A stretch of DNA of 42,135 nucleotides. Origin: a virus (lineage: Duplodnaviria > Heunggongvirae > Uroviricota > Caudoviricetes). Every line of letters starts with the position of its first letter. Within the stretch, counting starts at the first letter, position 1. The stretch is taken from the IMG/VR virus record IMGVR_UViG_2558860274_000001, positions 1 to 42,135 of that record. One strand, given 5' to 3'. Under the pieces are notes generated by a model. It was not told where the DNA came from. It saw only the letters and a program-made list of their open reading frames with translations, and searched no databases. Shown in pieces: positions 38,349 through 40,829 of the stretch. A program made the position numbers and the translations under genes.

Positions 38349-40829
38349 ATGAGTAAAGTCTTTATTTGCGCCGCCATTCCGGACGAACAGGCAACAGCAG
38401 AAGGCGCCAAACCTGTGGCCACTGCCATTGAAGCAGGCGACGAACGCCGGGCAAGAGCCAAATTTAGCTGGTTATTTCTGGAACAATACCCGGAAGCTCA
38501 GGACTGTGCTTATAAATTTCTTGTCTGCGAGGATAAACCCGGCATGGCCCGCCCTGCTCTCGATTCCTGGGATTCCGAATATATGCAGGAAAACCGCTGG
38601 AATGAGGAGTCGGCTTCCTTTGTTCCGGTCGACCCTGAACCGGACGCAGAAATTGTTAACTTTAATCAGTTATCTGACGACAAGCGGGCTGCTGTCCTTG
38701 TCAGGTTCGGTACACATGAAAACATCACCGTGGATATGGTCATCAATGCAAGCGGGCTTCTCGGCGATGACGAGATGACGACTTTTGATGGACACCTCGC
38801 TGAAGCAATTATCCGGACCAGAGAAATTAACGCCATGTATCCAGAGCGTCAGATTGAGTACATCAACGATGCCAGACGTGATTTAAAACCAACAGCCAAA
38901 TGGCCCGACGTTCAGGCGTATTTTCTCGAACGTAAAAAACGCATGGAAAAGGAGCGCAAAGAAGGTGGCGCATATAATTCCGTCGTCGATCTTGCCCGCG
39001 CCAGAGTCAACCGGCAAGGCACTGAAAACTCTGCAGGAAAAACTGACTCCGTAACTGCTGTCATTCGTCGCGAATACAGGCAGACATGGAAAACACTGGA
39101 TGAAGAACTGGCCTACGCTTTCTGGCCTGGTGATATTGATGCCGGAAACATTGACGGCAGCATCCATCGCTGGGCAAAAAATGAAGTTATCGACAAAGAT
39201 CGCGAAGACTGGAAGCGTATTTCCGCATCAATGCGCAAACAACCTGATGCCGTTCGCTACGACCGTCAGACTATTTTTGGCCTTGTCCGTGAGCGTCCGA
39301 TCGACATTCACAAAGATCCCGTGGCGCTGAACAAATACATCACTGAATACCTGGCGACAAAGGGCGTGTTTGAGGATGAAGAAACAGACCAGAGCACTGC
39401 TGATATTCTCCAGCCGTCAGCAGCACAAACTGATGCAGTGGAAACTGAAGTATCTGATACCCAAAAAAATGAAAGCGCGCTGGAAACTGAACCATCTGTA
39501 GAGCGTGAGGGGCCGTTCTACTTCCTCTTCACCGATAAGGATGGCGAAAAATATGGTCGTGCAAACAAACTTTCTGGTCTGAATAAGGCGCTGGCTGCCG
39601 GGGCTACTGAAATCACGAAAGAAGAATATTTTGCCCGTAAAAACGGCACGTACTCAGGTTCACAACAAAATACTGGTGCATCTGACACGACCGCACAACC
39701 AGAGCCGGTAAAAGTTACCGCTGACGAAGTAAACAAAATTATGCAGGCAGCCAATATCAGCCAGCCTGACGCCGATAAGTTGCTTGCTGCCTCTCGCGGA
39801 GAATTTGTTGCAGGGATTAGCGACCCGAATGATCCGAAATGGGTGAAGGGGATTGAAACCCGCGATTCTGTAAACCAGAACCAGCAAGAATCGGAACAGA
39901 ACGACCAGAAAGCGGAACAAAACAGCCAAAATGCGTTACAAAACGAGCCAGAAACGAAACAACCTGAGGCAGTAGCGCAACAGGAACCGGAAAAAGTCTG
40001 CACCGCCTGCGGTCAGAGCGGTGGCGGCAACTGCCCTGATTGTGGCGCGGTGATGGGCGACGCAACATACCAGGAAACATTCGATGAAGAGAATCAGGTT
40101 GAAGTTCAGGAAAATGATCCGGAGGAAATGGAAGGCGCTGAACATCCACACAAGGAGAATGCTGGCAGCGCTCAGGACCACGCCAGCGATAATGAAACTG
40201 GTGAGACGGCAGATCCCTTAATTGTGGTGAACGGTCATCACGTTATCACATCCACCAGCAGAGTGTGGTACCACCTGATGATCGACCTTGAAACAATGGG
40301 AACCAACACCAATGCGCCCATCGTGGTTATTGGTGCGGTTTTCTTCGACCCACAAACAGGGGAAATCGGGCCAGTATTTTATATCGTTATCAGTCTGACT
40401 GACGCAATGAATACAGGGGCTGCTCCTGACGGTGGAACCATCAAATGGTGGCTGAAGCAGTCCAGTGAAGCCAGAGCTGCCATTTTAACAGACCAGGTAA
40501 AACTGAAGGATGCCCTTTCGCGGTTTCGGGAGTTCATCAACGAATACTCAGATGAAAAATTCGTTCAGGTATGGGGTAATGGTGCAACTTTCGATAACGC
40601 AATTTTGCGCACCTCATACGAACGTCTGGACATCCCCTGCCCGTGGCGCTACCACAACGATCGCGATGTACGCACAATCGTTGAGCTGGGAAAAACAATC
40701 GACTTTGATGCTAGAACCGTTATTCCATTCGAAGGCGTTCGCCACAATGCACTGGATGACGCCCGTCACCAGGCAAAATACGTTTCAGCAATCTGGCAAA
40801 AACTGATCCCGAATCCGGTTGATTTTTAA
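38349..40829 (+). CDS. RecE/YdfE-like protein with central zinc ribbon and C-terminal DEDDh 3'-5' exonuclease domain
   Basis: 826 aa; C-terminal motifs IDLETMG, WGNGATFD, HNALDDARH; central CTACGQSGGGNCPDCG; N-terminal and central similarity to YdfE/RecE is recalled, not verified. Confidence 0.7.
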   Translation: MSKVFICAAIPDEQATAEGAKPVATAIEAGDERRARAKFSWLFLEQYPEAQDCAYKFLVCEDKPGMARPALDSWDSEYMQENRWNEESASFVPVDPEPDAEIVNFNQLSDDKRAAVLVRFGTHENITVDMVINASGLLGDDEMTTFDGHLAEAIIRTREINAMYPERQIEYINDARRDLKPTAKWPDVQAYFLERKKRMEKERKEGGAYNSVVDLARARVNRQGTENSAGKTDSVTAVIRREYRQTWKTLDEELAYAFWPGDIDAGNIDGSIHRWAKNEVIDKDREDWKRISASMRKQPDAVRYDRQTIFGLVRERPIDIHKDPVALNKYITEYLATKGVFEDEETDQSTADILQPSAAQTDAVETEVSDTQKNESALETEPSVEREGPFYFLFTDKDGEKYGRANKLSGLNKALAAGATEITKEEYFARKNGTYSGSQQNTGASDTTAQPEPVKVTADEVNKIMQAANISQPDADKLLAASRGEFVAGISDPNDPKWVKGIETRDSVNQNQQESEQNDQKAEQNSQNALQNEPETKQPEAVAQQEPEKVCTACGQSGGGNCPDCGAVMGDATYQETFDEENQVEVQENDPEEMEGAEHPHKENAGSAQDHASDNETGETADPLIVVNGHHVITSTSRVWYHLMIDLETMGTNTNAPIVVIGAVFFDPQTGEIGPVFYIVISLTDAMNTGAAPDGGTIKWWLKQSSEARAAILTDQVKLKDALSRFREFINEYSDEKFVQVWGNGATFDNAILRTSYERLDIPCPWRYHNDRDVRTIVELGKTIDFDARTVIPFEGVRHNALDDARHQAKYVSAIWQKLIPNPVDF

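Follow-up and report, generated by a model that had tools for sequence, protein, structure and literature searches.

A YdfE/RecE-type prophage protein that ends in a predicted DEDDh 3'-5' exonuclease domain and is followed by xis and int

RecE of the Rac prophage, DexA of phage T4 and the Escherichia coli protein EcD are among the closest described counterparts of the gene treated here. The one known effect of the N-terminal part of RecE is to enhance linear-linear recombination (PMC11611040). EcD degrades T4 DNA containing 5-hydroxymethylcytosine (5hmC) and not unmodified DNA (Kang et al., NAR 2025, PMC12153337), a selectivity that is attributed to retained equivalents of DexA W152 and D169 together with the loss of D90 (PMC12153337). 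Among the bacterial homologues of DexA, the genus represented most often is Escherichia (PMC12153337). The gene in question lies on the plus strand of a 42,135-nt DNA, positions 1-42,135 of IMG/VR record IMGVR_UViG_2558860274_000001 (Caudoviricetes), and this whole stretch is called the window below. Its open reading frame (ORF), 38349..40829, starts with ATG and encodes a product of 826 amino acids. By sequence comparison, this protein is a mosaic in which a YdfE-type N-terminus is followed by a RecE-like middle and linker, and a DEDDh end of the DexA/Rv2179c type is joined at about amino acid 626. Both the full protein (PHROG 2082) and its scaffold (Pfam YdfE_N, PF27430, and YdfE_C, PF27432) are already catalogued, and no published study of the 826-amino-acid protein was found in literature searches. 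An earlier reading of this DNA made from its letters, hereafter the sequence-only reading, had given the ORF coordinates and the quoted motifs exactly. Its observation of a RecE-like protein with an unexpected nuclease is confirmed, and its interpretation is partly supported. The gene and its parts are as follows.

38349..40829, plus strand: whole gene, YdfE/RecE-type scaffold and predicted DEDDh exonuclease (ORF, phrog_2082)
38349..38963, plus strand: amino acids 1-205, folded N-terminal alpha/beta and helical domain of the YdfE_N type
39081..39368, plus strand: amino acids 245-340, helical domain common with RecE residues ~278-350 (YdfE_C region; predicted local distance difference test score, pLDDT, >90; RecE alignment)
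39510..39653, plus strand: amino acids 388-435, small beta-hairpin/helix domain (pLDDT >90)
39768..40223, plus strand: amino acids 474-625, acidic Gln/Asn-rich linker common with RecE, predicted disordered, with the breakpoint at its 3' end
39999..40043, plus strand: amino acids 551-565, C4 motif CTACGQSGGGNCPDC, a possible zinc knuckle judged from its residues
40272..40796, plus strand: amino acids 642-816, predicted DEDDh 3'-5' exonuclease domain of the Rv2179c-like/DexA family (PF16473)

The Pfam scan of the 826-amino-acid protein returned PF16473 and PF00929 only. PF16473, which is named for the Rv2179c-like 3'-5' exoribonuclease, matched amino acids 642-816 with an E-value of 1.7e-69 and a score of 233.5 bits against a cutoff of 27, and the match covered positions 2-177 of the 177 in the model. 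In contrast, the PD-(D/E)XK nuclease of RecE (PF12684) was not matched in this protein by Pfam, while the control, Rac-SA53 RecE, was positive. The catalytic residues are D646 and E648 in IDLET, D749 in FDNA, and H799 and D804 in HNALDDA. They align with D7, E9, D119, H186 and D191 of T4 DexA, and all five are invariant in the 63 unique family members (63/63). DexA (8kel) was also the best sequence match in the PDB, where no other solved structure was found at E ≤1. An AlphaFold2 model was made from an alignment of 61 diverse relatives. Over amino acids 640-820 it has the DEDDh (RNase H-like) fold, with block-mean pLDDT values mostly between 75 and 94 and dips to 67-69. The top Foldseek match of the domain is again DexA 8kel (E 6e-7), and the next are RNase T, Orn/REXO2, ERI, ExoI and ExoX, all of which are DEDDh enzymes. 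The sequence-only reading had placed a DEDDh exonuclease where RecE has its PD-(D/E)XK nuclease, and the Pfam matches and the DexA alignment bear this out. DNA is the likelier substrate because DexA is nearest by both sequence and structure. The product is thus most likely a metal-dependent 3'-5' exonuclease that would act on the 3' ends of DNA rather than on RNA. The PADLOC result was limited to a weak, generic DEDDh (Cas-associated) match (E 3.7e-5), and the protein therefore falls outside the catalogued defence systems.

The part in front of the nuclease was resolved by alignment and by the model. Confident folded units were obtained for amino acids 1-205, 245-340, 388-435 and 640-820, and disorder was predicted for amino acids 345-383 and 500-637, the latter with pLDDT below 50 and containing the C4 motif. 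The YdfE pseudogene of K-12 Qin matches amino acids 1-256 at 67% identity (E 4e-115). Amino acids 262-626 are 39% identical to residues 278-592 of K-12 RecE in BLASTP, where the alignment ends at RecE residue 592, and the domain at 245-340 aligns with K-12 RecE. Identity rises in the linker, to 76% with Rac-SA53 RecE for amino acids 474-624, where the C4 motif lies. For the acidic linker with this motif, identity to RecE is 76-80%. The net charge of the linker is -24 across amino acids 500-637. Homologues that are 99% identical over the queried amino acids 1-625 carry precomputed matches to PF27430 (YdfE_N) and PF27432 (YdfE_C), and the assignment of these two domains is based on those matches together with the YdfE alignment.

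RecE as a whole is not what the gene encodes. The NCBIfam equivalog for exonuclease VIII, NF007259, failed with 279.9 bits against a cutoff of 1269, matching only model positions 263-603 of 877. The N-terminal RecE family Exonuc_VIII (PF06630) was not matched in the protein by Pfam, with Rac-SA53 RecE positive, and was found in 24 of the 61 scaffold-family members scanned. The sequence-only reading had described the whole N-terminal and central region as YdfE/RecE-like. The likeness to RecE stands for the centre and the linker, while the very start of the protein belongs to the YdfE type and not to the RecE type. It had also described a zinc ribbon like that of Rac RecE. The C4 motif is indeed common to RecE, but its segment is predicted to be disordered, with low model confidence there, and only 7 of 60 family representatives have the motif. 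Domain annotation, the alignments to RecE and YdfE, and structure prediction all agree with a mosaic that ends in a DEDDh domain. The family phrog_2082 ('exonuclease') covers the protein end to end, and the gene is 100% identical in nucleotide sequence to that of RefSeq WP_025237254.1, which is named '3'-5' exonuclease'.

Annealing partners were searched for in two ways. When every non-structural ORF of the window (early and nin region) was scanned with Pfam, genes of the RecT, Bet and Erf kinds were absent. RecT (two types), lambda Bet, Exo and Gam, and P22 Erf and Abc2 were used as tblastn seeds, and none of them matched in the window, in phage HannyBb or in the 80 IMG/VR loci that hold full-length homologues (934 kb), whereas the Rac-SA53 control was positive. 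Two prophage proteins that combine a RecE-type N-terminus with the DEDDh domain have xis-int directly downstream. In contrast, a RecT-family gene (39% identity to Rac-SA53 RecT, E 1e-61) lies immediately downstream of the gene for a YdfE-scaffold protein with the PD-(D/E)XK nuclease. The DEDDh forms are thus without an annealing partner in the window, the 80 loci, HannyBb and the two prophages with a RecE N-terminus. Since the DEDDh forms lack an annealase and the PD-(D/E)XK form comes with recT, the protein is reasonably not one half of a RecET-type exonuclease-annealase pair. Moreover, the predicted 3'-5' polarity would remove 3' tails, and a RecET- or Red-type annealing pathway is therefore unlikely. 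The absence of an annealing gene and the identity of the next genes, xis and int, had been noted correctly before. The accompanying proposal of a function different from that of RecE in this slot holds as far as the missing RecET-type pair is concerned, while the roles it suggested (end processing, anti-defence or exclusion) are proposals.

Nucleotide similarity to recE is confined to window positions 39768-40225, at 78-84% identity, and stops at 40216-40225, which is the domain boundary where the nuclease starts. When amino acids 1-625 were searched against 1.84 billion representative proteins, 232 relatives were obtained. Among 60 long representatives, both YdfE-type and RecE-type (PF06630) N-termini occur, each with either the DEDDh or the PD-(D/E)XK nuclease, and a third group (15 of the 60) joins the scaffold to a C-terminal domain of 285 amino acids. 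Stand-alone DEDDh genes of 189-190 amino acids are found directly before xis-int in Salmonella and Klebsiella prophages. Synonymous divergence (dS), estimated against 60 homologues, is about 1 in amino acids 1-205 and 640-820 but 0.1-0.3 in amino acids 245-625. This mosaic profile suggests repeated recombination with breakpoints that flank the conserved middle. The simplest reading is that DEDDh-xis-int and PD-(D/E)XK-recT with its following genes are alternative cassettes exchanged by recombination in the linker, so that recT would be lost together with the 5'-3' nuclease. The dS profile fits this reading. The RecT proteins of Rac-SA53 (367 amino acids; locus L002, 8174-9277) and K-12 Rac (269 amino acids; locus L004, 4985-5794) show no mutual tblastn match at E ≤1e-3. 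This mismatch in otherwise Rac-like prophages is another sign of cassette replacement in the recombination slot.

Other endings of the scaffold were observed in the same set. In the third form, YdfE_N and YdfE_C are fused to the conserved 285-amino-acid domain, which has the motif KKSLTDAxKKALSxLGF and belongs to phrog_2489 and phrog_7838 ('exonuclease'). Examples are locus L097 6001-8717, from a Logan contig of SRR27833613, and the proteins P0258, P0265, P0276 and P0356, among others. Downstream of the third-form gene lie a Mu Gam-like/Sipho_Gp157 gene and, after it, int. Assignment of the module as a Rad52-like annealase gained no support: the Pfam Rad52_Rad22 matches were weak (E 0.03-0.11 only) and PHROGs names the families 'exonuclease'. 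Neither a PDB profile search with the third module nor hhalign against P22 Erf and lambda Bet gave a match. Members without a recognisable nuclease (P0246, P0255, P0274, P0325 and others) have a short conserved tail, '...LTIAAxxGLCANPA...', after the linker. In one Salmonella prophage (locus L093, 5703-7570), a gene for a 432-amino-acid protein with a dATP/dGTP pyrophosphohydrolase domain (PF04447) immediately precedes the stand-alone DEDDh gene and overlaps its start. A connection with nucleotide metabolism may thus exist in that lineage.

The gene is under purifying selection, functional and very common. Against about 60 homologues, the ratio of nonsynonymous to synonymous divergence (dN/dS) is 0.05-0.26 per segment, except for 0.30 in amino acids 206-244 and 0.65 in the disordered amino acids 341-387. 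By domain, it is 0.15 for DEDDh, 0.14 for amino acids 245-340 and 0.05 for amino acids 388-435. An intact ORF is kept in 71 or more of the 80 loci. Of 5426 complete E. coli genomes, 2100 contain DNA that spans 80% or more of the gene, and 4085 (~75%) contain DNA of the DEDDh domain, with a median of 2 copies per genome and up to 8-9. The gene is also carried by Stx2-converting phages and by isolated phages such as Evi, HannyBb, Tritos and mEp460 (Evi, HannyBb and mEp460 form plaques), where its label varies between 'exonuclease', 'exodeoxyribonuclease VIII' and 'exodeoxyribonuclease of CP-933P'. On dN/dS and prevalence, a pseudogene or a chance ORF is rejected as the explanation. The rarity implied by the sequence-only reading did not hold up: the protein is ubiquitous in E. 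coli and its RefSeq name is already that of a 3'-5' exonuclease.

The window is a lambdoid prophage with its late and structural genes on the minus strand. Its early-right genes encode a Cro-like protein, a YdaT-like protein, a replication protein and a DnaC/IstB-like protein. Next comes a nin-like region that encodes DUF968/HNHc, RusA and Q, and after it the genes for holin, lysozyme and Rz. The early-left operon begins at about 35.5 kb on the plus strand and is collinear with the dicB operon of K-12 Qin. Its order matches K-12 Qin dicA-ydfABC-dicF-dicB-ydfD-ydfE-int, with ydfA (DUF1391), ydfB and ydfC upstream of dicB. The exonuclease gene is the last large gene of this DicA-repressed operon in a Qin/dicB-type lambdoid prophage. 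The features of the operon around it are as follows.

35574..35981, plus strand: DicA/CI-type repressor at the operon head (HTH_3, Phage_CI_repr; collinear with the Qin dicA region)
36042..36070, plus strand: promoter-like site before the ydfA-ydfB-ydfC...dicB-exonuclease operon (TTGACC, 17-nt spacer, TAATAT; consensus match only)
37881..38069, plus strand: dicB, cell-division inhibitor (PF05358, E 2.2e-38, residues 36-97 of ORF 37776-38069; PGAP on the identical region)
40896..41147, plus strand: xis, excisionase (DUF4224), directly downstream of the exonuclease gene (phrog_1266, PF13986)
41116..42135, plus strand: int, tyrosine integrase, with which both prophage and window end (PF00589, phrog integrase families)

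A promoter consensus scan found no promoter-like site directly upstream of the exonuclease gene. Because of the synteny with the DicA-repressed dicB operon, expression would be expected on induction or infection. The int gene in NZ_CP125889 adjoins yccA. Several smaller features of the prophage were also recorded. Downstream of dicB and ahead of the exonuclease gene, at ~38066-38256 on the plus strand, lies a ydfD-like frame (DUF1482, lysis protein), for which the annotation of the identical NZ_CP125889 region records a frameshift. Just upstream of dicB, two matches on the plus strand fall below their Rfam gathering scores: a DicF-like small RNA at 37657-37706 (41.1 bits against 48, E 2.6e-7) and an STnc100-like match at 37704-37913 (39 bits against 47). 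Relative to K-12 Qin, an insertion of ~635 bp at 36702-37335 lies between ydfC and the dicF region. It holds an ORF of 135 amino acids (36704-37111, plus strand, phrog_1363) and an overlapping antisense ORF of 77 amino acids (37089-37322, minus strand, phrog_10348), and both are also present in phage Evi. In the nin-like region, at 28697-30431 on the minus strand, a 368-amino-acid protein with a helix-turn-helix and an M78 peptidase domain matches RmrA of PADLOC (E 8e-105), and the neighbouring gene encodes a 216-amino-acid protein that matches RmrT (E 4.6e-25). The two form a candidate prophage-borne defence or toxin-antitoxin pair. A Hok/Gef-family toxin gene (30597-30752, minus strand, 51 amino acids, PF01848, E 1.2e-23) is also located inside the prophage.

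Together with these data, a working of the protein can be proposed. The folded YdfE_N/YdfE_C scaffold (amino acids 1-435) and an acidic disordered linker of ~140 residues would carry the DEDDh domain. Derepression of the operon, on induction or infection, would lead to synthesis of the exonuclease, which would act alone and not as half of a RecET/Red exonuclease-annealase pair. Its role would be accessory: it would trim or degrade linear DNA with free 3' ends, whether host, competing phage or plasmid DNA, and would not serve to make 3' tails for annealing. Recombination in the linker would have replaced a PD-(D/E)XK-recT cassette with the DEDDh-xis-int cassette. The joint reading, a solo metal-dependent 3'-5' DNA exonuclease that is made on derepression, was acquired by cassette exchange and serves an accessory function on linear DNA, which it trims or degrades, is given a probability of roughly 0.55. 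Some points weigh against it. RNA may be the substrate, given the exoribonuclease name of PF16473 and the structural closeness of RNase T and Orn. The exonuclease activity of the 826-amino-acid protein and of all fused members is a prediction. Expression upon derepression alone is drawn from the synteny of the dicB operon and the consensus scan for promoters. The annealase seeds cover the RecT, Bet and Erf families, and annealases of other kinds are excluded by Pfam in the window only. Finally, structure searches of the PDB and BFVD gave no recognisable fold relative of the N-terminal units, which bears on their proposed role as a scaffold.

A broader proposal, which is tentative and has a small chance of being right, is that the scaffold and linker form a general delivery platform, directed to DNA ends or to a host factor, with interchangeable effectors. 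The DEDDh version would then be a new annealase-free system that excludes or degrades foreign linear DNA or counters host defence. The effectors seen on the scaffold are PD-(D/E)XK with RecT, DEDDh alone, and the 285-amino-acid domain followed by a Mu Gam-like protein. If this proposal is true, the DEDDh system is widespread in E. coli and in the Stx prophages of enterohaemorrhagic strains.

Defence of the EcD or 'HREX' type is an unlikely explanation. According to it, the prophage nuclease would digest incoming 5hmC-containing DNA of T-even phages and thereby cause superinfection exclusion. DicB, which is encoded in the same operon, is reportedly a phage-exclusion factor. EcD, an E. coli homologue of DexA, digests T4 DNA and protects cells (PMC12153337), and the domain studied here is DexA-like and prophage-borne. 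However, W152 and D169 of DexA, which are tied to the recognition of 5hmC (PMC12153337), align with H769 and T783 in an alignment of 31% identity with nearby indels. Across the 63 members, the W152 position is occupied by tyrosine (41), histidine (12), cysteine (9) or threonine (1), and the D169 position by threonine (30), alanine (30), serine (2) or valine (1). D721, the equivalent of DexA D90, whose loss is tied to a dimer-only state that spares unmodified DNA, is kept in 63 of 63 in the same 31%-identity alignment. EcD also differs in sequence, as its primers imply a protein that starts with MIDTET... and ends with ...TIPETYD. None of the 120 best homologues starts with MIDTET, and exact scans of viral, genome and metagenome contigs for the 20-mer of the EcD reverse primer found unrelated DNA only. 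In addition, the gene belongs to a repressed early operon and has no promoter-like site of its own. The signature of EcD, with Trp and Asp present and D90 lost, thus appears to be absent from this protein, and a role in exclusion, though possible, gains no support from these comparisons.

A role in recombination or repair is doubtful to the same degree. The scaffold would bring the 3'-5' nuclease to DNA ends, where it would trim 3' flaps or non-homologous tails, or it would feed RecA/RecFOR or an annealase supplied in trans. The gene does occupy the recombination slot, its scaffold and linker are common with RecE, the third form of the scaffold precedes a gene for a Mu Gam-like DNA-end-binding protein, and RusA is encoded in the same prophage. 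With a median of 2 such prophage genes per E. coli genome and a maximum of 8-9, partners in trans are conceivable. On the other hand, RecA and annealase pathways work with 3' tails, which a nuclease of 3'-5' polarity destroys, and no annealase lies beside any DEDDh form examined. The same slot also holds stand-alone DEDDh genes that lack the scaffold, which argues that the nuclease is independent of the RecE-like part.

An RNA exonuclease like Mycobacterium tuberculosis Rv2179c, RNase T, Orn or the ISG20-like TONDO proteins, which would trim the 3' ends of host or foreign RNA during induction, is improbable. The name of the Pfam family, the PGAP name '3'-5' exoribonuclease' on many members and the structural nearness of RNase T, Orn and REXO2 point in this direction, and prophage DEDDh proteins that carry auxiliary domains give protection from RNA phages (PMC13344964). 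However, sequence and structure comparisons both rank the DNA exonuclease DexA first, and by sequence it is the sole solved structure at E ≤1. The TONDO authors call their proteins sequence-distinct from other defence-linked DEDDh domains (PMC13344964). That the gene is a functionless, decaying fossil of illegitimate recombination riding with xis-int is very improbable, since the pseudogene status of K-12 ydfE (cut by IS2) and the frameshift of the neighbouring ydfD-like ORF are outweighed by low dN/dS, invariant catalytic residues and an ORF that is intact in most loci and in the plaque-forming phages HannyBb and Evi, among others.

The label 'exodeoxyribonuclease VIII', which is still frequent, is wrong for the DEDDh form because the RecE nuclease is missing and there is no RecT. 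The gene is among the commonest large prophage genes in E. coli. The swap of nucleases and partners on a common scaffold is a natural experiment on the unexplained N-terminal part of RecE, of ~600 residues, and bears on whether prophages without an annealase handle DNA ends differently. If an exclusion or anti-defence role is true, such a system would be very widespread; if the protein is merely an accessory DNA-trimming enzyme, the main value lies in the correction of annotation.

Among known systems, lambda Red (Exo-Bet-Gam) and P22 Erf/Abc have the same early-left operon position in lambdoid phages, without sequence similarity to the gene here. The ISG20-like TONDO proteins, prophage DEDDh proteins with auxiliary domains, are a looser analogy (PMC13344964). 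EcD is an E. coli DEDDh exonuclease of the DexA family, the sole E. coli relative characterised by experiment and the sole bacterial member for which both biochemistry and a phage-defence phenotype are reported (PMC12153337), which makes it a precedent for exclusion. It (HAK9828821.1) is a short stand-alone protein with different termini, judged by the cloning primers. T4 DexA (8KEL/8KEN) belongs to the same Pfam family and has the five DEDDh residues in common, at an identity of ~31% (23-25% in the Foldseek alignment). It is a stand-alone lytic-phage protein of 227 amino acids with extra loops, whereas the protein here has an N-terminal extension of 640 residues.

The stand-alone Rv2179c-like exonucleases of 180-190 amino acids in Salmonella, Klebsiella, Citrobacter and Enterobacter prophages are 60-65% identical to amino acids 644-826, and some truncated forms of E. 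coli reach 97% identity to the same region. They occupy the same place directly upstream of xis-int and have no YdfE/RecE scaffold or linker. At the DexA W152 position, five of five aligned stand-alone homologues have Trp, whereas the protein here has H769. YdfE of K-12 Qin (b1577) is the positional ortholog, with 67% identity over amino acids 1-256. It was cut by IS2 at the equivalent of window position 39115, and everything downstream, including the nuclease domain, was lost. Rac RecE/RecT occupies the same slot between kil/dicB and xis-int, and RecE has the central helical region (amino acids 262-473 here) and the C4 linker in common with the protein here. In both proteins, the large N-terminal part is 'of unknown function' (PMC11611040 for RecE). 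RecE has a PD-(D/E)XK nuclease (residues 564-866, PF12684), PF06630 and an adjacent RecT; in contrast, the protein described here is without all three, and the predicted polarity of its nuclease is opposite to that of RecE.

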